From Akkermansia muciniphila (GTDB lineage: Bacteria > Verrucomicrobiota > Verrucomicrobiia > Limisphaerales > UBA9464), in contig CAMAUY010000008.1 of NCBI GenBank assembly GCA_945861565.1, forward strand, positions 6,032 to 70,031: a DNA stretch of 64,000 nucleotides, read 5' to 3'. A model generated the notes under the pieces. That model saw only the letters and a list, made by a program, of their open reading frames with translations. It did not search any database and was not told the DNA's origin. Shown piece after piece: positions 9,183 to 51,916 of this stretch. Both the position numbers and the translations under genes were made by a program. Position 1 is the stretch's first letter. Every line of letters begins with the position of its first letter.

Positions 9183-9306
9183 AGTGGTGGCCCCGAAGAA
9201 TATCTAGGCCCCTCCGCAGTTCCATCTTTCTTTTCTCGCCCCGCTCGGATCAGCCTTCGGCGATCCCGCTGGCATTCTGCTTATGAAATCCAATCACTCA
9301 TTTCCC

Positions 9307-10605
9307 ATGAAACCTCTCGACCGTCGCTCATTTCTCACCCGGGCCTTGGGTGCCGCGGGAGTGTCTGCAACCGGCTCATTGAATCTGACCGCCGCCGAGT
9401 CGCCCTCGGAAAAGGGCGCAGCGTTTTTGAAGGAAGTCGCCGAGAACGAACGCATCGCTCGGAGCAAGAACGCCAAGCCAATGATCGGTCTCGGCGACAA
9501 ACTCAAGATCACCAAGGTCGAAACTATTTTCGTCAAGCCCCGCTGGCTGTTCCTCAAGATTCATACGAACGCCGGGATCACCGGGCTGGGCGAGCCAATC
9601 GTCGAAGGGCGCGCGAAAACGGTCGCCACCGCGATTGAGGAATTAATTCCCTACCTCTTGGGCAAGGATCCGCGTCCGGTCGCCCATCACTGGCAGGCGA
9701 TGTATCGGCATGCTTTCTATCGGGGTGGACCCATTCTCACGAGCGCAATTAGCGGGGTGGATCAGGCGCTGTGGGACATCAAAGGGAAGGCGCTCGGCAT
9801 ACCGGTGTACGAATTGCTCGGCGGCCCCACCCGGTCACGCGTGCGCACGTATGCCCACGCTGGAACCGTGGAGCAAATCAGAAGGCGGAAGGCGGAAGGA
9901 TTCACCGCATTCAAGACCGGACCCTACAAGGAGCGCCCAGCCCGCATCGTCGAGAACAAGGCGTTCATCGATAAGGCCGCCCAACGCTTCGCCGAACTTC
10001 GCGCGGCAGTTGGGGATGAATGCGACATCGGCATCGACTTCCACGGCGCCCTCAGCCAGCAGACCGCCCGGCTGCTCATCAAGGCACTGGAACCCTATCA
10101 GCCCATGTTCATCGAAGAGCCCGTCAACTGCCAGGAGGTCGATGTCATGGCCGACATTGCACGCGGCACGCACCTGCCGATTGCAACCGGGGAGCGAATC
10201 TTCACCAAGTGGGGCTTCCGCGAAATCTTGGAGAAGAAGGCCGCGACGATCTTGCAACCCGACCTTTGCCATGCCGGTGGCATCACCGAGTGCCGTTTAA
10301 TTGCCGGCATGGCCGAAGCGCATTACGCCGCCATCGCGCCGCACAATCCCCTCGGGCCGATTTCACTGGCGGCGGGAATCCATCTCGCCGCTTCGATTCC
10401 AAATTTTCTTTGCCAGGAGCAATCCAGCCTCGGCGTGGGCTACATCAAGAAACCATTCGAAATTCGCGACGGTTACATCGACATCCCGACTGCGCCGGGC
10501 TTGGGCGTCGAACTCGATGAAGAATTACTCGCGAGCAAAATCAATCACGACTGGCGCAACCAGGAAACGTACGACCCGGAGGATGGCTCGGTGGTGGACT
10601 GGTAA
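9307..10605 (+). CDS. dgoD: Galactonate dehydratase (enolase superfamily) with twin-arginine signal
   Basis: DRRSFL Tat motif; PRWLFLKIHT, GLGEP, FYRGGPILTSAISGVDQALWDIKGK, DFHG, FIEEP, ATGER, APHNPLGP. Confidence 0.88.
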   Translation: MKPLDRRSFLTRALGAAGVSATGSLNLTAAESPSEKGAAFLKEVAENERIARSKNAKPMIGLGDKLKITKVETIFVKPRWLFLKIHTNAGITGLGEPIVEGRAKTVATAIEELIPYLLGKDPRPVAHHWQAMYRHAFYRGGPILTSAISGVDQALWDIKGKALGIPVYELLGGPTRSRVRTYAHAGTVEQIRRRKAEGFTAFKTGPYKERPARIVENKAFIDKAAQRFAELRAAVGDECDIGIDFHGALSQQTARLLIKALEPYQPMFIEEPVNCQEVDVMADIARGTHLPIATGERIFTKWGFREILEKKAATILQPDLCHAGGITECRLIAGMAEAHYAAIAPHNPLGPISLAAGIHLAASIPNFLCQEQSSLGVGYIKKPFEIRDGYIDIPTAPGLGVELDEELLASKINHDWRNQETYDPEDGSVVDW

Positions 10606-10608
10606 TTC

Positions 10609-13600
10609 GTGCGTTCAGAATTATGCCCGCTCCCTTGGGATAGTAACTTCCTCTTCCGCTCGCTGAATTTCTCCGTACCATCGGCTTCCGTGTTTAGCAT
10701 CCCTGCTTCCTGCCCGCTTCTCGATGGCCTTGTTGCGGTTGCCGCTTGTTCGATGGTGTTTCGCGCCGCCCTCGGGGCGGAGGACCCGTTCGCGGCGGGA
10801 GTCCGTCCCACCGACCCTCTCACTCCCTCCGAGCAGACGGCGAAATTCAGGCTCCCGCCAGGTTTCGAGATCCAGCTCGTCGCGAATGAGCCGGACATTA
10901 ACAAACCCATGAACCTCGCTTTCGACGCGACCGGCCGGCTTTGGGTGACCACCAGCATCGAGTATCCCTGGGCCGCCCCGACCGATCGGCCGGCGCGGGA
11001 TCGACTGATGATCTTCGAGGATTTCGGGCCCGACGGCCGTGCTCGCAAGGTGACCCAGTTCGCCGACGGCCTCAATATTCCCACCGGCGTCTATCCATTC
11101 CGGACGGCGGACAAGCACTGGAAGGCGGTCGTGTGGTCGATCCCCAACATCTGGTTGCTGGAGGACACCGACGGCGATGGCAAGGCCGACAAGCAGGATC
11201 GGCTTTACGGTCCGTTCGATTCCACCCGCGACACCCACGGTAATCAGTCCTCGTTTCGGCGCGGCTTTGACGGCTGGTTGTATTGCACGCATGGATATAA
11301 CAACGACTCGCACGTCACCGCTGGCGATGGTAGTCACGTCGATCTCAATTCCGGCAACACCTATCGTATCCGGCTCGAATCATCGCGCATCGAGCACCAC
11401 ACGCACGGACAAGTAAACCCGTTTGGCGCCGCCTTTGATCCGCGCGGGAATATTTACACTTCCGACTGCCATAGCGCCCCGATTTATCAGCTCATCGCGG
11501 GCGGGTGGTACCCTAGCTTCGGCAAACCTCACGACGGCCTTGGCTATGCCCCGGTTCTGATGGAACACGCCCACGGTTCCACTGCCATCGACGGCTTGAG
11601 CTACTACTCCGACGACCTCTGGCCGGCCGAGTTCAAAGACAACATATTCATCGGAAATGTCATGACGAGCCGCTTGAACCGCGACCGTCTCGAATTTCAT
11701 GGTTCAACCCCGAAGGCGATCGAACAGGAGGATCTTCTGAAGACTGAAGATCCATGGTTCCGGCCGGTGGACACCTGTCTCGGCCCCGACGGCGCTCTTT
11801 ACATTGCTGACTTCTATAACCGCATTATCGGTCACTACGAAGTGCCGCTCACTCATCCAGGCCGCGACCGCGAGCGCGGGCGGATTTGGCGCATTGCCTA
11901 CCGAGGCACCGATGGAAAGGCCGCGCTGCGAATCCCGCGATTGCCGGACGACCTGGCTGGATTGATCGGCGAGCTCGCATCCCCGAGCCAGCCGCGCCGG
12001 ATGCTGGCAATGAATGAAATCCAGGACCGCTTCGGCGCGGCGGCGAAAGACCCGTTGCATCGGGCGCTGGCCCGGCCTGCCAATGCCTACCAGCACGCGC
12101 ACGCACTCTGGCTCGTGCACCGGCTCGGGGGCCTCCACCTTGCCGAACTCAGCGATGCCATGACTTCCAACGACTCCCTCGTGCGCAATCATGCCCAGCG
12201 CGTTGGAGGCGACCTGCTCTATCAGGCGGCTCGCCGGGGGACCGTGCCGGAGGACCTGGTCCAGGGAGCTCAGAGGGCCGCGATGGACGGATTGACGGAC
12301 CGGGATGCACATGTGCGGCGCGCGGCGGCCGAGGCGCTGGGTCATTTGCCTCACCAGAACACGGTCCGCCCATTGCTCAACCTGATCGCCAGGATCGAAA
12401 CGGAAGACACGCATCAGATCTATGTCGCCCGGAAGTCCCTGCGCGATCAACTCGTGGATCGCAATATCTTTAGTTGGGTGCTCGGGCAAGACAACTGGTC
12501 CGCGACTGATATTCAGGCACTGGCCGATGTGGCGCTCGCAGTCAAGTCAGAGATCGCGGGGACTTTTCTCCTGCGTCAGCTGCCTGCCCTGGGGCCGAAC
12601 CGGAAGCTACTCTCTTCCGCGTTGAAACACGCCGCGCAATACGCACCTCCCTCGGAGCTCGAAGCCATCGCCCTCTTCGCGCGCCAAGAATTCTCCGGCG
12701 AGCTCGACTTCCAGCTCGATCTGTTTACGAGCGTGGAACAGGGCGCCAGCCAGCGTGGCGTGACGTTGAGCGATTCCCTGCGGACCTGGGGAACAGAGCT
12801 TTGCGGACAAGCCTTGTCGGCAACACTCGATTCCGTCTGGTACAACACGCCGCTCGAAAACACGATCGACATTGGCAACCCGTGGACCTTTCAGGAGCGC
12901 CGCTGTGCCGACGGCCAGGCGGCAACGCTTCTTTCCAGCCATCCGCGCGGTGAAACATTTACGGGCCGCCTGCGCTCCAGGCCCTTCACCCTGCCGGCCC
13001 GTCTGAGTTTCTACCTGTCCGGACACGACGGTGAACCGGATCGTTCGCCCGCGGGACGCAACGTCGTCCGCCTGCGCGACGCGACGAGCGGCGCCGTCCT
13101 CGCTGAGGCCGCGCCTCCCCGGAACGATACCGCCCAGAAGATTACCTGGGAGCTCGCCGCTCCTGTGGGCAGGCAGGGCATCTTCGAGGCGATTGATGGT
13201 GATAGTTCCGACGCCTGGGCGTGGGTTGCATTCGGGCGCTTCGACCCACCCGTCCTTGCACTGCCATCACGGGCTCCCGGTGCCATCGCCCGCCGGCAGC
13301 AAATCGCCGGTGACCTCGCCGGGCGGCTGCGGCTTCCGGTTGGACCGCAGGCCCAAGCCATTGCTTTCGGACAGGAATTTGATATCGAGGCGCGGGCTTC
13401 CGCGATTCGTGCCTTCGCCGCGCTCGACCGAGCCGCGGCCACACCGACCCTGGCACCGCTGCTGCAGGACAGCGCCCAACCGCTCCGATTGCGTGAGGCG
13501 GTTGGACTCGCGCTGCTCGATTCGGAACAAGGCGGGGCGCGGGCCGATGTGATCGCCGCGATGAAATCTGTGCCGTACCGGCTGCAAGTGAGCTGGGCGC

Positions 13601-14247
13601 AAACGCTCGCGGCTTCCACGGCGGGTTCCACGGCTCTTCTCGACGCCATCGCCAGCGGCGTGGTCCCACCGCGGATTCTTCTCGAACGCGCCGTAAAGGA
13701 TCGCCTGGCGACGGGCAAGTCGACCGAAATCGGCACGCGGATCGCAAAGCTGACCCAAGACTTGCCGCCGACCGATCGCGAGCGAGACCGCTTGATCAAT
13801 CGCCGCCGGGACGCCTATTCCACTGCGAAGACAAGACCGGGAGTCGGCGAACAAATCTTCCTGAAGAACTGCGCCGTCTGCCACCAAATGGAGGGCAAGG
13901 GCGCATTGGTCGGGCCACAACTCACCGGCATCGGCACGCGCGGCCTCGAACGTCTCTGCGAGGATATCCTCGATCCGAACCGCAACGTGGATGTGAATTT
14001 CCGCACCACGGTCCTAACCCTGAAGGACGGTGACACCGTGAGTGGTTTGTTCCGTCGCTCGGAGGGGGAACTTCTCGTCCTCGCCGATGCTGCCGGCAAG
14101 GAGTTTACCGTGCCGACACCGACCGTTCGTGAGCGGACCCAGACCGAGTCCTCGTTGATGCCCGACAACTTTGGCGACGTAATCACTCCCGAGGATTTCA
14201 ACGCACTGCTCACGTTCCTGCAGGCGAAACAGGGTGATGCAAAATGA
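10609..14247 (+). CDS. PVC-type heme-binding CxxCH protein (sorbosone dehydrogenase-like propeller + HEAT repeats + cytochrome c)
   Basis: FRLPPGFEIQLVANEPDINKPMNLAFD, DGDGKAD repeats, FRPVD..GPDGALYIADFYN, CAVCH, GPQLTGIG; true start probably downstream of 10609. Confidence 0.9.
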   Translation: MRSELCPLPWDSNFLFRSLNFSVPSASVFSIPASCPLLDGLVAVAACSMVFRAALGAEDPFAAGVRPTDPLTPSEQTAKFRLPPGFEIQLVANEPDINKPMNLAFDATGRLWVTTSIEYPWAAPTDRPARDRLMIFEDFGPDGRARKVTQFADGLNIPTGVYPFRTADKHWKAVVWSIPNIWLLEDTDGDGKADKQDRLYGPFDSTRDTHGNQSSFRRGFDGWLYCTHGYNNDSHVTAGDGSHVDLNSGNTYRIRLESSRIEHHTHGQVNPFGAAFDPRGNIYTSDCHSAPIYQLIAGGWYPSFGKPHDGLGYAPVLMEHAHGSTAIDGLSYYSDDLWPAEFKDNIFIGNVMTSRLNRDRLEFHGSTPKAIEQEDLLKTEDPWFRPVDTCLGPDGALYIADFYNRIIGHYEVPLTHPGRDRERGRIWRIAYRGTDGKAALRIPRLPDDLAGLIGELASPSQPRRMLAMNEIQDRFGAAAKDPLHRALARPANAYQHAHALWLVHRLGGLHLAELSDAMTSNDSLVRNHAQRVGGDLLYQAARRGTVPEDLVQGAQRAAMDGLTDRDAHVRRAAAEALGHLPHQNTVRPLLNLIARIETEDTHQIYVARKSLRDQLVDRNIFSWVLGQDNWSATDIQALADVALAVKSEIAGTFLLRQLPALGPNRKLLSSALKHAAQYAPPSELEAIALFARQEFSGELDFQLDLFTSVEQGASQRGVTLSDSLRTWGTELCGQALSATLDSVWYNTPLENTIDIGNPWTFQERRCADGQAATLLSSHPRGETFTGRLRSRPFTLPARLSFYLSGHDGEPDRSPAGRNVVRLRDATSGAVLAEAAPPRNDTAQKITWELAAPVGRQGIFEAIDGDSSDAWAWVAFGRFDPPVLALPSRAPGAIARRQQIAGDLAGRLRLPVGPQAQAIAFGQEFDIEARASAIRAFAALDRAAATPTLAPLLQDSAQPLRLREAVGLALLDSEQGGARADVIAAMKSVPYRLQVSWAQTLAASTAGSTALLDAIASGVVPPRILLERAVKDRLATGKSTEIGTRIAKLTQDLPPTDRERDRLINRRRDAYSTAKTRPGVGEQIFLKNCAVCHQMEGKGALVGPQLTGIGTRGLERLCEDILDPNRNVDVNFRTTVLTLKDGDTVSGLFRRSEGELLVLADAAGKEFTVPTPTVRERTQTESSLMPDNFGDVITPEDFNALLTFLQAKQGDAK

Positions 14248-16196
14248 GAGTTGACCGTTTCGTCCTCATCGCCTGGTTGGGGTGGCTCTTGGTCACACAT
14301 TCGCTGGCCCAGGAACCCGCATCCGTATCGACCCCGCCCGGTCGCGAAGCGAAAATCGGCGACCTCCGACCAGAGGTCGTCGTCCTGCCCAAATCGGTTC
14401 CCGACCCAATCGAACCCTTTAATCGAATCGTTTATAGCATTAACAATGGGATTATGGCCGTGTTGATCAAGCCGACCGCCAATCTTTACCGGCACATCGT
14501 CATCAAGCCGGTCAGGACGGGGATTAGCCATTTCGGCAGGAATCTCTCGTTTCCAGGTCGGCTCCTCAACAACTTGCTGCAGGGAAAGTGGAGCGGAGCC
14601 CGCGATGAAACCACCCGGTTTGTTTGCAACACGACCGTCGGGTTGGCGGGGGTGTGGGATGTGGCGACCCGATGGAAGGTTCCGAAATCGGACGCCGACT
14701 TTGGTGAGACTTTCGGCCAATGGGGCTGGAAGCCGTGCTGCTTTCTGATGCTGCCTCTTTTTGGCCCGAGCAATGAACGCGATTCACTCGGTCTCGCGAT
14801 GGACACGATGGCACACCCTCTGATGTATTTCGCTCCCTACCAGTTCAATTCGGTCAATCCGCTGACCTACATTGGCCCCTATACTTATTTCAGCTACGCA
14901 AACACGTACAATACTCTTGCTGACAGCATTGACGAATATGTCCGCTTTAGTCAGGCCGAAATGGATCCGTATTCGGAGATCCAGTATGCCTGGACCTTCG
15001 CGCGGGAGAATCGAGTGGCGGATTTTAAGGTTAAGGGCAGTCAAGACACCGCACTCCTGGAAACTCTCCAATCGGTCTTTTTTACCTTCAAGGACCCCGG
15101 TTTTCCAGATCGCGGCAAGACTCGTTCGGTCCTGATTCCGGCGACGGGCCGGAAGTTGCCATTTACCTTTTGGTTGCAATCCAGCAATGCTCCGGTGGTC
15201 TATATTGTTCCAGGTCTGGGCTCGCATCGACTGGCTCAGCCCTCGCTGGCTCTGGCCGAACTGGCCTACAAGAACGGCTTCTCGGCCGTTTGTGTCAGCA
15301 GCACGTTCAATTCCGAGTTCATGGAACGGGCCTCCACCGCCGCCCTGCCAGCCTATCTGCCGGTCGATGGACACGATATGCATGTCGCGCTGACAGAAAT
15401 GGATAGGCACCTCAATGCGATGTACCCGAATCGATTGGGTCGTAGGGGGCTCCTGGGCTATTCCATGGGCGGACTACACACCCTGTTCATCGCGGCCACC
15501 TCTCCGACGAATGCCTTGCCCTTGCTACCGTTTGACCGATTCGTCGCCGTCCATACTCCGGTGCGATTGCTTCATGGAGTAGCCAAGCTGGATGAATTTT
15601 ACCAGGCACCCTTGGGTTGGCCGGCCGCCGAGAGGATCGACAACCTCGAAAATGCCTTCCTGAAGGTCGCCGCGTTGAGCAAGGGCACACTCACACCGCA
15701 TACCTCGCTGCCTTTCGATGCGATCGAGTCGAAGTTTCTTATCGGATTGACGTTCCGGTTGATGCTCCGTGACATTATTTTCAGCAGTCAGCGACGGATC
15801 AATCAGGGAGTCCTCAAACACACCGTCAATAACTTGAAGCGCACCCCCGTCTACCAGGAGATCCTTGAAAATTCCTACCGGGACTATTTTGAGAAGTTTG
15901 TCATTCCCTATTACGCGACCAGGGGTCTGACGACTGGAACCGCCGAGGCTCTAGAGCAAGCCGATGATTTGCGAACGTATGAAGCCGCCCTGCGTGGCAA
16001 CTCCGATATTCGTGTCATCGTTAATCGCAACGATTTTCTTTTGGCGGCAGAGGATCTGGCCTGGTTGCACACCACGTTTGGACCGGAACGATTGTCTGTT
16101 TTCGAACAGGGCGGGCATCTGGGAAATCTCTTTAGTCCGGCGGTGCAGGAGACAATTCTGGAGGCTCTGTCCGGGTTGAAATCAGCGCCACCGTGA
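14244..16196 (+). CDS. MlaA/VacJ-family domain fused to a C-terminal alpha/beta hydrolase (lipase-like)
   Basis: DPIEPFNR, NTTVGLAGVWDVA, DFGETFGQWG, LMLPLFGPSNERD (VacJ); then VPGLGSH, GYSMGG, NDFLL, GGHLG (hydrolase triad). Confidence 0.85.
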   Translation: MRVDRFVLIAWLGWLLVTHSLAQEPASVSTPPGREAKIGDLRPEVVVLPKSVPDPIEPFNRIVYSINNGIMAVLIKPTANLYRHIVIKPVRTGISHFGRNLSFPGRLLNNLLQGKWSGARDETTRFVCNTTVGLAGVWDVATRWKVPKSDADFGETFGQWGWKPCCFLMLPLFGPSNERDSLGLAMDTMAHPLMYFAPYQFNSVNPLTYIGPYTYFSYANTYNTLADSIDEYVRFSQAEMDPYSEIQYAWTFARENRVADFKVKGSQDTALLETLQSVFFTFKDPGFPDRGKTRSVLIPATGRKLPFTFWLQSSNAPVVYIVPGLGSHRLAQPSLALAELAYKNGFSAVCVSSTFNSEFMERASTAALPAYLPVDGHDMHVALTEMDRHLNAMYPNRLGRRGLLGYSMGGLHTLFIAATSPTNALPLLPFDRFVAVHTPVRLLHGVAKLDEFYQAPLGWPAAERIDNLENAFLKVAALSKGTLTPHTSLPFDAIESKFLIGLTFRLMLRDIIFSSQRRINQGVLKHTVNNLKRTPVYQEILENSYRDYFEKFVIPYYATRGLTTGTAEALEQADDLRTYEAALRGNSDIRVIVNRNDFLLAAEDLAWLHTTFGPERLSVFEQGGHLGNLFSPAVQETILEALSGLKSAPP

Positions 16197-16218: not shown

Positions 16219-17400
16219 TCAGATCGTCAAGGGCTTGGCGCGGTATTTCTTCAGCGCATCGATGTCGAGATCGATGCCGAGTCCGGGCTTCGTCGGCGGC
16301 AGTAAAACGCCGTCTTTGAATGTAAGGCCGTCGTCGCAGAGGTCACGACGCAGCGCCGAATCGCAGAGGGACGCCGGCAGGTATTCAATGAACGGACAAT
16401 GCGGGATCGCGAACGCGAGGTGCGCCGTCGCGGCGATGCCGATACCGGTTTTCCAGCAATGCGGCACAATCTGTCTGCCGCGGTCCTCTGCCATGTGACA
16501 GACTCGCATCGACTCGGTGAATCCACCGCAGCGCCCCACATCCGGTTGCGCCACGTCGACCCGGCCGACATCCAGGAGTTGCCGAAACTCGTGCCGACTA
16601 TTGAGCCATTCGCCGGCGGCAATCCGCATCGGAGCTTCCCGCGCCAACTGCGCGTAACCCTCCAGATTGTCCACCCGGAGCGGCGTTTCAAGGAAGTAGA
16701 TGTCGAGATCCGCCCATTGACTCACTGTCCGCAGGCACGTCGGTGCGTCGCGCCAGAGATATTGCACGTCGACCATCAGCGCAAAATCTTTCCCCACCGC
16801 TTCCCGCACTGCGCGGACAACTTCTGTCGCCTGCTCGTCGGTGCCACGCAGGCTTTGGTGACGATACGGTCCATTCAAAGTACACTCCATTTTTCCCGCC
16901 CGGAATCCCGCCTTTTTTGCCTTCTTCGCCCACGACACCAACGTCTGGGTGTACGTCTTAACGTTCGTCCCCTCCGGTTGGAGTGACGCATACGGTGTGA
17001 TGGTTTTTTGCACGGCTCCCCCGAGCAATTTGTACACCGGCTTGCCCACCGCCTTTCCTTTGATGTCCCACAGTGCCATGTCGATCGCGCCCATCGCGCA
17101 GAGCACCGGCCCGCTGCGTCCGGACATGCATGTCGCTTCGTACGCCCGGTCCCAAAGTGCGGTGGTCTCGAAAGGATCCTGACCGAGGTAAACGTCCTTC
17201 AGGCTCATCGCCATCGAGTGACTGCCCGGTGCTTCGATCGCAGCCCGTGCGAGCCACGGACCCGTATCGGTTTCGCCCACGCCGGTAATCCCGTCATCGG
17301 TCTGCACGAGGACAACGAGATTATCCTGCGACGAGCTGGTGGCATCTTCTTTGAGGTCGGGCACGACGAGCACATGGCATTCGATGGCGGTTATTGTCAT
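16219..17400 (-). CDS. Mandelate racemase/muconate lactonizing enzyme family protein
   Basis: TDDGITGVGE, AIDMALWDIKGK, LMVDVQ, FLETP, AAGEW, QPDVGRCGG, VPHCW. Confidence 0.9.
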   Translation of the reverse strand: MTITAIECHVLVVPDLKEDATSSSQDNLVVLVQTDDGITGVGETDTGPWLARAAIEAPGSHSMAMSLKDVYLGQDPFETTALWDRAYEATCMSGRSGPVLCAMGAIDMALWDIKGKAVGKPVYKLLGGAVQKTITPYASLQPEGTNVKTYTQTLVSWAKKAKKAGFRAGKMECTLNGPYRHQSLRGTDEQATEVVRAVREAVGKDFALMVDVQYLWRDAPTCLRTVSQWADLDIYFLETPLRVDNLEGYAQLAREAPMRIAAGEWLNSRHEFRQLLDVGRVDVAQPDVGRCGGFTESMRVCHMAEDRGRQIVPHCWKTGIGIAATAHLAFAIPHCPFIEYLPASLCDSALRRDLCDDGLTFKDGVLLPPTKPGLGIDLDIDALKKYRAKPLTI

Positions 17401-17414
17401 GGGCGTAACAAGTT

Positions 17415-18374
17415 TCAATACCATTTCCGAGGTCGAACGTCTATTTCCAGGTCAAACCCGACCAACTGCTTGAAGGTATTGAGATCCGAATTGCGAAAGT
17501 GATAAGGATAAATTACGCGCGGACGGAAGCTCCGGGTCGCATTTGCCGCGTCGCCCACGGACATGGTGAAGGGGAGGTTCATGCACAGAAAGGCTACGTC
17601 GATGTTTTGCAGGGCTCGCATTTCGGGGATATTGCCGGTGTCGCCGCTGATGTAAAATTGGCGGTCGCCCATCGTGACCACATAACCGTTCCCTGTCCCT
17701 TGGGGGTGATTGAGATTGTACGCGGGAATCGCCTCCACGGGCAGGCCGAGGACATTGGTCGATCCGCCATTTGCCAGGGGAATGGTCTGCGCCTTCAATG
17801 TCGATGAGAGGCTGCTATAAATCGCAGCCGGTGCAATCAGGATGGTTTCGGCCTGCTTGACCGCCGTGAGCGTCGCACTATCAAAGTGATCACTGTGGCT
17901 GTGACTGACGAGGATCAGATTGGCCCTAGGCAATCCTTGATAAGGCGTGGCCCCGTTCACGGGATCATTATAAATAACAACGTTGTTCCAGCGCATTAAG
18001 AAGCTTGCGTGATTCACGGGTTGGATTACCACGTCGCCCGCTGCTGTCTGCACGTGGTCGCCGACAAAAACGCCCGGGTCCGACACTGCGACTGCCCGGT
18101 AAAATCGGGCACTAGCGAAGCGGGCACCACCGTCGGTAAACGGATTGGTGCCAAGGCTCTTGGCCGTTACGAGTGTACGCCATGACGGCAGTTCTTCAGT
18201 TGTTTCCAGGCGAAAATGGCGTCCTGGTGTGACGGCGATTTTCAAGGCCACTTCTCCGTTGGTCTGCCGGAGTACCTCGGTGAAACGAGGGATCTCTTGG
18301 GCGCGGAGGGCCGCCCCAATCGTCAACCCAGCCGCCGCCACCCCCAGAATAATCCGCCCGGTCAAATCCTTCAT
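17415..18374 (-). CDS. MBL-fold metallo-hydrolase (Lactamase_B_3/UlaG-like) with N-terminal beta-rich module
   Basis: SHSHSDHFD metal motif, HASF, GNGYVV, YISGDT, AFLCMNLPFTM, PYHF; signal peptide. Confidence 0.85.
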   Translation of the reverse strand: MKDLTGRIILGVAAAGLTIGAALRAQEIPRFTEVLRQTNGEVALKIAVTPGRHFRLETTEELPSWRTLVTAKSLGTNPFTDGGARFASARFYRAVAVSDPGVFVGDHVQTAAGDVVIQPVNHASFLMRWNNVVIYNDPVNGATPYQGLPRANLILVSHSHSDHFDSATLTAVKQAETILIAPAAIYSSLSSTLKAQTIPLANGGSTNVLGLPVEAIPAYNLNHPQGTGNGYVVTMGDRQFYISGDTGNIPEMRALQNIDVAFLCMNLPFTMSVGDAANATRSFRPRVIYPYHFRNSDLNTFKQLVGFDLEIDVRPRKWY

Positions 18375-27265: not shown

Positions 27266-27982
27266 ATGAAACGATCATCCCTACTCGCGCTGGCGGCCGT
27301 CGCCTCGTTTGCCTTGACCGCGTGCCATTCAGTCCGACCTCAGGAGGAGAAAGGGTTTGTCAGCCTGTTTGATGGCAAGACTCTGAAAGGCTGGAACGGC
27401 CGGTCGGATCTTTGGAGCGTGCGCGACGGCACCATCACCGGGGAAACCCACGCGATTAACCCCCTCAAGGGCAATACATTTCTCGTCTGGACCAACGGTG
27501 TGGTCGATAATTTTGAACTGCGTTTCGACTACAAAATCCTCAATGGCAATTCCGGGATACAATACCGCAGCCAGTTGCTCGATCCCGAAGCATTTGTGGT
27601 GGGCGGCTATCAAGCCGACTTTGAAGCCGGGAAGACCTATTCTGGAATTTTATATGAGGAGCGCCAACGCGGCATTCTCGCGCAACGGGGGCAACGGACC
27701 GTTGTGCGCGACGTTGCCGGCAAAACCCAAGTGGACGTCGTCGGCAGTGTCGGTGATTCGGCTGCCATTCAGGCATTGATCCATGATCGCGACTGGAATA
27801 GCTACGTCGTGATCGCCAATGACAATCATCTGATGCATTTTATCAACTCCAAGATGACGGTGGATGTCGTCGATCACCAGGCCGCGAAGGCGGCTAAGTC
27901 CGGCATCCTCGCATTCCAGATCCATGCCGGTCCGCCGATGCTGGTGCAATTCCGCAATGTCCGGCTGCGGCGCCTGCCCTGA
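27266..27982 (+). CDS. DUF1080 (3-keto-disaccharide hydrolase-like) protein, probable lipoprotein
   Basis: Lipobox LTAC; LFDGKTLKGW, NSGIQYRS, GYQAD, WNSY, LAFQIHAG. Confidence 0.9.
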   Translation: MKRSSLLALAAVASFALTACHSVRPQEEKGFVSLFDGKTLKGWNGRSDLWSVRDGTITGETHAINPLKGNTFLVWTNGVVDNFELRFDYKILNGNSGIQYRSQLLDPEAFVVGGYQADFEAGKTYSGILYEERQRGILAQRGQRTVVRDVAGKTQVDVVGSVGDSAAIQALIHDRDWNSYVVIANDNHLMHFINSKMTVDVVDHQAAKAAKSGILAFQIHAGPPMLVQFRNVRLRRLP

Positions 27983-50395: not shown

Positions 50396-51916
50396 TCAGG
50401 TTGCGGCCTTCATTCGAGAAAGCAGATTGGCGGTGATGCGTTGCACGCGCGGATCGGGCCCTTCCGGCTTCGTATACACCATCGGACGAACATAACCGGG
50501 CGGCTCGCTCAATCCGTCCCCCCACCAGATCGTCGACGCATTGAAAACAAAGTTTCCCCGCGGGCCGGGATAGACGGTTGCGGTATAGATTCCCCCATTC
50601 GGCTTGCCCGGCGCATCCTGAGTCGGACCGGTGGCAACGATCTCCAGGCCCGGAATGGGAGCGGGATCCCCGTGCCATTCCCAGCCCACTAAACCGGGGA
50701 TACCGTCGCCTGTCTTCATCCCCGTCCCCGCAAACACCCAATGATTCGGTTTCGCACACGTCCAAGCGGCCCCTCCGGTCACCCATCCCGTGCTGTGGGC
50801 GCCGACCAGTTCGTTCGCATAGGGCCGGACGTGGGGCAACGACTGCATCGCCACGAATTCTCGTGTGCCGCCCGGCGGACCGAAGACACCCACCCTCTCA
50901 AACACCCGATCCCGTCCACCCCGAGCGTCCGGCGAGAGGAGGATCCGGCCGCAACACGTGTTCCCGGAAAGGAACGCCACGTTCAAGCCATTGGCGATCG
51001 CCCGTTGGACGTTCTGAAACATGTCCAGCGACCAGTACTCGTCATGTCCAACCGACAACATTCCCCGGGCTCGCCCCAACCCGGCCGGGTCCGCGTGCGT
51101 GTCGTGATTGGAGATATACGTTACATCGTAACCCTGTTGTTCCAGCCAGAAGGCCGTCGGAAACTCCCACAAGAGAAACTCTCCTGATCCGGTCGAAAGG
51201 GGCGCGTCAAAGATCTGACAGTACTTTCCATACGGACGATTGAATCCCACCTCAACACCGCCACCCCAATACCAGGAATCCTTGCCGTTGTCGTAAAGGG
51301 CGAAATTGTCGGGCCAGCGGTTGTACGCTTGCCACGTATTATCGCTGACCTGGAATAGAAAATCCGCCTTCCGATCGTCCCGGACGACGAATACCACATA
51401 GCTTTGCAAACCACCCACGTCCGCCGTGAGTTTGCCGAGATACACGCCGCTGACCCAATCCGAGGGAATCACCAGCTCCACCGCGGCCGGCCAGTCGCAG
51501 TCCCGCAACCGCTTCTTGCCCACGCCTGGATCCGGCTGGGCGATTCCCTGGAACGGCCCAAGCTGCTTCACGAGCCGTCCGCCCATACCGCCGTACCAAC
51601 CCATGCGGTAGAGATCGATGCGGAAGGAGGATGCCGGACGCGTGCTGACATGGAACCGCACTGATTCTCCGGCCCGGACGCTCTGGCGGGAACAATAGCC
51701 CTCAATCCAGGGACACCGGTATCGAGTGGGCGGATCGATCCGAGTGGTTGTCAGCATCCAATCTCGGGTTCCCTCCCGGGCATTTTCCCGGGAGATGCGG
51801 TCGGGCTTCGCGGCGGTGAACCCGGCGGGAAGGGTGTTACAACCGGACAAGACCGCACCGGCGCCCGCCGAGAGCGCAGTCTTGAGGATGTCACGACGTG
51901 AAAGAGGAGAAGCCAT
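50396..51916 (-). CDS. N,N-dimethylformamidase beta-subunit-like protein with Tat signal
   Basis: SRRDILK; IEGYCS, YRMGWYGG, NTWQAYN, VSFNRPY-like GFNRPY, LSVGHDEYWS, FLSGN, FNASTIWW. Confidence 0.85.
   Translation of the reverse strand: MASPLSRRDILKTALSAGAGAVLSGCNTLPAGFTAAKPDRISRENAREGTRDWMLTTTRIDPPTRYRCPWIEGYCSRQSVRAGESVRFHVSTRPASSFRIDLYRMGWYGGMGGRLVKQLGPFQGIAQPDPGVGKKRLRDCDWPAAVELVIPSDWVSGVYLGKLTADVGGLQSYVVFVVRDDRKADFLFQVSDNTWQAYNRWPDNFALYDNGKDSWYWGGGVEVGFNRPYGKYCQIFDAPLSTGSGEFLLWEFPTAFWLEQQGYDVTYISNHDTHADPAGLGRARGMLSVGHDEYWSLDMFQNVQRAIANGLNVAFLSGNTCCGRILLSPDARGGRDRVFERVGVFGPPGGTREFVAMQSLPHVRPYANELVGAHSTGWVTGGAAWTCAKPNHWVFAGTGMKTGDGIPGLVGWEWHGDPAPIPGLEIVATGPTQDAPGKPNGGIYTATVYPGPRGNFVFNASTIWWGDGLSEPPGYVRPMVYTKPEGPDPRVQRITANLLSRMKAAT

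Follow-up and report, generated by a model that had tools for sequence, protein, structure and literature searches.

What does an MlaA-family protein do with the lipid it takes up when a hydrolase is attached to it and no MlaC carrier is found in its genome? The question is raised by one gene, at 14244..16196 on the forward strand of a 64,000-nucleotide (nt) stretch of a verrucomicrobial genome (contig CAMAUY010000008.1; the whole stretch is called the window below), whose predicted product is an MlaA domain joined in a single chain to a lipase-type serine hydrolase. We put at roughly 70% the probability that this product is a secreted, single-chain outer-membrane lipid-asymmetry device, which extracts phospholipid and then degrades it without MlaC. 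The concept has been known since 2023, from the MlaYZ system and one fusion protein (PMC10374164), and so is not new in principle. What appears distinct here, as judged from sequence comparisons, is the reversed domain order, the placement of both domains in clades of their own, the absence of a lipobox, and the position of the gene as the sole MlaA in a genome without a detected MlaC.

An MlaA domain and a serine hydrolase in one chain

An earlier note, made from the DNA sequence, had described 14244-16196 as an MlaA/VacJ-hydrolase fusion marked by the motifs GYSMGG, NDFLL and GGHLG, and this description holds in every part. The gene is an open reading frame (ORF) of 650 amino acids (aa) plus stop. 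Residues 53-256 (14400..15011) form the MlaA/VacJ domain, which matches Pfam PF04333 with an expect value (E) of 7.8e-54 and 182.7 bits (cut-off 25) over profile positions 2-194 of 195; in a search of PDB sequences, the MlaA chains 8i8r_D, 5nuq_G and 5nuo_D were recovered at E about 1e-17. Residues 290-650 (15111..16193) are assigned, from homologs and Foldseek, to an MlaY-like alpha/beta-hydrolase with a large helical cap. HMMER, which the note had proposed as a check on both halves, recognized the VacJ domain clearly, but the Pfam alpha/beta-hydrolase matches of the C-terminal 360 residues alone stayed below threshold (E 0.02); the hydrolase is therefore identified by its triad, its homologs and its fold rather than by Pfam. 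The three motifs begin at residues 405, 596 and 623 and supply the putative nucleophile Ser407 (G-Y-S-M-G; codon 15462..15464), the triad acid Asp597 (N-D-F-L-L; 16032..16034) and the triad base His625 (G-G-H-L-G; 16116..16118), the last of which corresponds to His415 of MlaY. All three residues are invariant in alignments of 53 close and 86 diverse homologs.

Modeling of the whole chain with AlphaFold2 from the diverse 86-sequence alignment gave a mean predicted local distance difference test (pLDDT) score of 88.6 and a predicted template-modeling score (pTM) of 0.88; with the 53 homologs of ~70% identity as input, pLDDT was 50. Only residues 1-40 scored below 50. They overlap a Pro/Ser/Thr-rich, low-confidence linker (residues 23-52; 14310..14399) that varies among homologs and whose C-terminal end is a conserved VVLPKSVPDP lead-in to the MlaA domain. 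Confidence dipped again, to 56, at residues 261-270, within the inter-domain connector (residues 257-289; 15012..15110), while the rest of the model was confident. For a chain of two domains, a pTM of 0.88 implies that they are fixed relative to each other, as they are said to be in the published fusion, and we regard a fixed two-domain architecture as confidently predicted. The MlaA domain of the model (pLDDT >90) was matched by Foldseek to 5nur_B, 5nuo and 8i8r_D with template-modeling (TM) scores of 0.75-0.85 and root-mean-square deviations (rmsd) of 3.1-4.8 over ~210 residues, the best being 5nur_B (TM 0.85, rmsd 3.2). Matches to the C-terminal domain comprised the monoacylglycerol lipases ABHD6 and Rv0183, esterases, lipase A, thioesterases and some acetyltransferases. 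The predicted fold is thus that of a capped lipase or esterase, a fold that does not define the substrate.

Hydrolase-linked MlaA and MlaC are mutually exclusive

For 121 high-quality genomes from the phylum of the window, we compared where MlaA and MlaC occur. MlaA was hydrolase-linked in 36 genomes (33 with a fused gene, including the window's genome, and three with split genes), and MlaC was present in none of them. All 18 genomes with an MlaA that is not hydrolase-linked have MlaC, usually adjoining MlaA, and the 67 genomes in which no MlaA was found have no MlaC either. No genome carried more than one MlaA (0/121). Hydrolase-linked MlaA and MlaC are thus mutually exclusive across this sample; because the sampled genomes are related to one another, the pattern is to be read as one over about a dozen families, not as 54 independent events. 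It provides the strongest new support for the idea that lipid is extracted and degraded instead of being shuttled, and it is comparative evidence absent from the original MlaYZ paper, supporting "degrade" and "return" as alternative solutions.

The window's genome, which is 93% complete, fits this division. Its one MlaA is the gene described here. No MlaC (PF05494) was found in this 93%-complete genome with the same profile that detects MlaC in 18 genomes of the phylum, and PldA (PF02253) likewise had no match in it. Four to five MlaE homologs are encoded elsewhere in the genome, none of them on the window's contig. The remark in the earlier note that no mlaCDEF genes lie nearby is thus borne out for mlaC and mlaE.

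One apparent exception was set aside. Genome G033 has MlaC together with a 774-aa frame (L110:2060-4381) that bears an MlaA domain at its C-terminal end (approximately residues 519-658), which made it a candidate for a fusion co-occurring with MlaC. The ~500 residues ahead of the MlaA domain include no match to the hydrolase, and the candidate was rejected as a different MlaA architecture.

Relation to MlaYZ and other lipid-asymmetry systems

In Pseudomonas aeruginosa, the MlaA paralog MlaZ works with the alpha/beta-hydrolase lipoprotein MlaY (S187/D388/H415), separately from MlaA-MlaC-MlaBDEF (Guest et al., PNAS 2023, PMC10374164). His415 is needed for MlaY function, and MlaY, labeled a "putative lipase" in the literature, genetically resembles the phospholipase PldA (PMC10374164). 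The window protein shares several features with MlaZ (PA3239) and MlaY (PA3238): an MlaA-family channel is paired with a Ser/Asp/His alpha/beta-hydrolase, the pair is independent of MlaC-MlaBDEF and occurs where PldA is missing, and extraction followed by periplasmic degradation is the proposed mode of action. However, MlaYZ consists of two lipoproteins encoded in the order mlaY then mlaZ, whereas the window protein is one chain, MlaA then hydrolase, without a lipobox; and P. aeruginosa retains the canonical Mla pathway, whereas MlaC was not found in the window's genome.

The earlier note had asked whether such a fusion was already characterized. An MlaA/hydrolase fusion has indeed been noted, but with the domains in the opposite order: A0A3A4W9L3, a natural fusion from an unclassified Desulfobacteraceae, has its hydrolase at 107-454 and MlaA at 529-741 (PMC10374164), against MlaA at 53-256 and hydrolase at ~290-650 in the window protein. 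Both are single polypeptides that combine MlaA with an MlaY-related hydrolase, and in A0A3A4W9L3 the MlaA domain is predicted to sit on the hydrolase. Its hydrolase is 40% identical to MlaY, much closer than that of the window protein. The canonical system of Escherichia coli (MlaA-OmpC/F, MlaC and MlaFEDB; PDB 5nup, 8i8r) shares the homologous MlaA ring domain, but its MlaA is a lipoprotein of ~250 aa that passes lipid to MlaC, in contrast to a protein with no lipobox and an attached hydrolase. PldA (OMPLA) probably achieves the same outcome, destruction of outer-leaflet phospholipid, although it is an unrelated beta-barrel enzyme that works within the outer leaflet.

To relate the C-terminal domain to MlaY itself, we relied on proteins of the Geobacter group, which stand in for PA3238 and whose MlaY-type status is assigned by the synteny criterion of PMC10374164. 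A search of 151 genomes from the phylum of a "Deltaproteobacteria" metagenome-assembled genome (MAG) returned four hydrolases that stand alone, in open frames of 439-470 aa, and that match the domain at E 1e-23 to 1e-31. Each abuts a downstream MlaA-family gene (260-311-aa frame) bearing a canonical lipobox, and their nearest named relatives are "alpha/beta hydrolase" proteins of Geobacter, Geomonas, Geomobilimonas and Oryzomonas. Counted from the start codon, their triads fall at S178/D378-379/H405-406, which gives Ser-to-Asp and Asp-to-His spacings of 200-201 and 27, compared with 201 and 27 in MlaY and 190 and 28 in the window protein. With the hydrolase of Geobacter sp. AOG1 (P0396), the domain shares 28% identity over 337 aa (E 7e-33), with all three catalytic motifs aligned; there, a 423-aa hydrolase gene is followed, after 17 nt, by a 266-aa PF04333 gene. 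At the level of sequence, the C-terminal domain is shown to be homologous to MlaY-type hydrolases, a claim that does not extend to orthology.

A large family in which the hydrolase is partnered with MlaA

A word-indexed search returned more than 1,742 homologs, and the best-scoring 120 are full length and ~70% identical; the fusion is therefore not an assembly artifact. These 120 are named as Verrucomicrobiota, Limisphaerales, or, by the Joint Genome Institute (JGI), "MlaA / pimeloyl-ACP methyl ester carboxylesterase." With only the C-terminal domain as query, HMMER was run exhaustively over 1.84 billion cluster representatives and matched 1,023 of them (each a cluster at 50% identity), with 253 below 1e-30. 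Among the best 150, every fused protein is MlaA-first, with the hydrolase match at ~270-640 of 600-680 aa, and nearly all retain the triad motifs. The 2023 MlaYZ idea, which concerned a single pathogen and one cited fusion, thereby comes to cover a large, strongly conserved family.

The same search yielded "standalone" representatives of 430-450 aa, which we considered as free MlaY orthologs. When named genomes were scanned with them, 80 loci were found, spanning Lentisphaerota, Verrucomicrobiales (Luteolibacter pohnpeiensis, Roseibacillus), Oligosphaeraceae and a "Deltaproteobacteria" MAG. At 76 of these loci an MlaA domain lies on the same strand in the same frame or in an abutting upstream gene, and the other four end at a contig edge; at every testable locus (76/76), then, an MlaA domain is joined to the hydrolase or lies directly next to it. 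The hydrolase family is obligately partnered with MlaA domains. The interpretation of the 430-450-aa proteins as free MlaY orthologs was accordingly dropped, as they are the downstream members of Victivallales gene pairs in which MlaA-then-hydrolase is split. The split hydrolases nest inside the fused clade, which fits gene fission. They carry signal peptides of their own, so they are real separate genes and not frameshift artifacts. This Victivallales subgroup, in which the genes abut or overlap, comprises L012-L018, L021, L024, L025, L027, L029, L031, L035 and L107-L109. The MlaA-like gene comes first in each pair and the hydrolase second, opposite to the order mlaY then mlaZ.

The missing lipobox

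The leader of the window protein (residues 1-22, MRVDRFVLIAWLGWLLVTHSLA; 14244..14309), read from the sequence, ends in a probable S-L-A/Q cleavage site, MRVDRFVLIAWLGWLLVTHSLA/QEP. As the earlier note had suggested, it appears to be of the signal-peptidase-I type, and it contains neither a Cys nor a lipobox, the first Cys of the protein occurring not before residue 128. Such a leader would be processed by signal peptidase I without lipidation. Other leaders of the window's clade end in ...SLA/Q or ...AHG/Q, and any Cys in them follows Leu within the hydrophobic core; by a simple, crude rule, a lipobox is absent from 113 of 118 close homologs. The organism itself uses lipoboxes, since the window also encodes a textbook lipoprotein leader (...SFALTAC/HS; ORF 27266-27982, forward strand) and a twin-arginine-like one (SRRDILK...VLSGC/NT; ORF 50396-51916, reverse strand), so the absence is a property of this protein.

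The note had further implied that this absence is exceptional, and here the wider family does not agree. Among 66 family representatives with complete N-termini, 42 have a lipobox-like leader and 24 do not. Sister orthologs in Verrucomicrobiaceae have the lipoboxes L-S-A-C and F-S-S-C, and the Luteolibacter pohnpeiensis ortholog (L070) bears a lipobox; the split Victivallales forms have none, and the same is true of several MlaA proteins of the canonical, MlaC-linked type in this phylum. Examples of the latter from other Verrucomicrobiota (L097, L100 and L101) adjoin MlaC and begin with signal-peptidase-I-like leaders. As predicted from leaders, then, loss of the lipobox is clade-specific, affects about one third of the family and has arisen repeatedly in the MlaA family, so that it is not unique to the window protein, and the rule that MlaA is a lipoprotein would not be general in this phylum.

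These leaders call for caution in annotating such genes as "VacJ/MlaA family lipoprotein" and in using mlaA as an outer-membrane lipoprotein proxy, as in PMC11784454. The lipobox-free members also pose the question of how an alpha-helical protein embedded in the inner leaflet would reach the outer membrane without Lol.

A candidate extract-and-degrade device and its alternatives

In the mechanism we propose, the N-terminal MlaA-type ring would lie in the outer membrane's inner leaflet, where stray outer-leaflet glycerophospholipids would slide through it toward the periplasm. There they would go not to the carrier MlaC but to the attached Ser407-Asp597-His625 hydrolase, which would cleave them, as proposed for MlaZ and MlaY of P. 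aeruginosa. The fusion is the sole MlaA-family protein of this genome, and it appears to stand in for the MlaC shuttle as well as for PldA. We infer that phospholipid is the substrate and that it is handed over through the channel, and the protein would reside in the outer membrane. A one-polypeptide, non-lipidated "extract and degrade" module of this kind had been envisaged in the earlier note, and it now draws support from the homology to MlaY-type hydrolases, the linkage to MlaA, the exclusion of MlaC and the predicted two-domain structure. The single chain, with its predicted fixed architecture, would be a handy object for proving the hand-over of lipid from the MlaA pore to the lipase site.

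Several points weigh against this reading. Acyltransferases, and enzymes that use other esters, also occur among alpha/beta-hydrolases with this triad. Identity of the window hydrolase to MlaY-type proteins is just 26-28%, and in the hydrolase tree a long branch (total ~2.2; support 100/100) parts the Geobacter MlaY-type proteins from all fused and split members, which puts the window hydrolase outside the MlaY clade. The absence of a lipobox makes the route to the outer membrane a difficulty. Finally, the gene is patchy among close relatives: 7 of 24 members of the family have it and, outside the family, 1 of 16 members of the order. Its orthologs contain in-frame stops in three relatives, one of the same genus and two of the same family (G121:C107:30128-32054, with at least six stops; G125:C59:10621-12438; G141:C554:1080-2930). 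From its patchy distribution and these stops we conclude that the gene is dispensable and accessory, which may be compared with the tolerance of P. aeruginosa for losing single Mla pathways, and that it is undergoing repeated loss.

One alternative is that the hydrolase, instead of breaking phospholipid down for disposal, remodels envelope lipids or uses another ester, for example as an acyltransferase with the extracted phospholipid as acyl donor (PagP-like), a lysophospholipase, or a deacylase of another envelope lipid. The substrate is not fixed by sequence, the Pfam alpha/beta-hydrolase matches are sub-threshold, and the Foldseek neighbors of the C-terminal domain include deacetylcephalosporin C acetyltransferase (2vat) and thioesterases beside lipases. 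Yet MlaY, the nearest functionally tested relative, is genetically PldA-like (PMC10374164), and strict exclusion of MlaC fits the replacement of lipid removal rather than an extra remodeling activity, which makes remodeling an unlikely explanation. A different objection concerns location. An anchorless protein might not be integral to the outer membrane at all, and might instead act in the periplasm, stay in the inner membrane by an uncleaved signal anchor, or harvest exogenous lipids as nutrients. The leader is free of Cys, a lipobox is near-uniformly absent from the window's clade although the organism encodes lipobox proteins (27266..27982), and the gene follows sugar-acid/dehydrogenase genes. 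That metabolic neighborhood is not conserved, however, and the MlaA domain shows high conservation and can be superposed on the ring of membrane-embedded MlaA. Lipoboxes in the sister Verrucomicrobiaceae orthologs and in two-thirds of the family argue for a common outer-membrane site, and in this phylum several MlaA proteins that are canonical and MlaC-linked also do without one. We consider a location away from the outer membrane improbable, to a slightly greater degree than remodeling. The patchy distribution and the stop-bearing orthologs could also mean that the gene is decaying and has no current function in the window's genome. In the window copy, however, the 650-aa frame is uninterrupted and every catalytic residue is in place; its identity is 92% to an intact same-genus ortholog and ~70% to hundreds more, a level of conservation that indicates purifying selection; decay is accordingly very hard to credit. 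The preferred reading remains that of a device that extracts and degrades phospholipid.

A possible lineage distinct from MlaYZ

We built trees of both domains, each of them unrooted. In the MlaA-domain tree, all 40 fused or split domains lie on one side of a branch with 100/99 support, and canonical MlaC-linked MlaA, the MlaA of E. coli and the MlaZ-type proteins of Geobacter lie on the other. This clade separation in both trees, together with the reversed domain order, suggests a lineage distinct from MlaYZ. An origin of the fusion independent of MlaYZ cannot be upheld as proven: the free trees suggest it, but in the approximately unbiased (AU) test, a topology grouping all hydrolase-linked MlaA domains together was not rejected (p-AU 0.173). 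Given this value and the unrooted trees, one ancient origin is possible.

A broader proposal is offered tentatively, as one that we hold to be possible but somewhat doubtful. MlaA-then-hydrolase proteins would form an old lineage of their own rather than a rearrangement of MlaYZ; they would serve as the sole asymmetry system, fully replacing MlaC-MlaFEDB, in many members of the Planctomycetes-Verrucomicrobia-Chlamydiae (PVC) group (Verrucomicrobiae, Lentisphaeria) and in others; and those of the window's clade would embed in the outer membrane without Lgt, Lsp and Lol. If this is true, the presence of mlaA would be unusable as a marker of outer-membrane lipoproteins in comparative surveys.

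Genomic neighborhood and minor observations

The gene upstream of the fusion (10609..14247, forward strand) encodes, by Pfam and NCBIfam, a PVC-type heme-binding CxxCH protein (DUF7133, HEAT and cytochrome c), which is not part of the system. The two genes share an ATGA start/stop overlap (14244..14247). The earlier note had remarked on this translational coupling; the overlap is real, but it is kept only in the 92%-identical same-genus ortholog, and six other relatives have different neighbors. We therefore rejected a functional link to the heme-protein gene. Mandelate racemase/enolase-superfamily genes (9283-10605, forward strand; 16219-17424, reverse strand) flank the heme-protein and fusion genes, and the same arrangement is found in a same-genus relative (L112). 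The fusion gene would seem to be a passenger within this sugar-acid dehydratase/dehydrogenase locus.

Elsewhere, a different neighborhood recurs. The fused gene of several relatives lies beside a small cluster with AMPK1_CBM, DUF883 (ElaB/YqjD-like) and Phage_holin_3_6-like members (L007:10867-11952, L008:5032-6117, L115:7200-8684 and L011:6914-7697), and NarL-type two-component genes are often found upstream. Just upstream of Geobacter mlaY (L111:2279-2593) there is a BON-domain gene, as there is near the fused gene in L011. These may represent a recurrent envelope or stationary-phase stress neighborhood.

Outside the window, the same genome carries a fragment of ~35 aa (G000:C5:87552-87653) that is 59% identical to residues 613-647, the C-terminal helix of the window protein. 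It lies in a 79-aa frame with a TAG, and the same fragment occurs in the same-genus genome G122.

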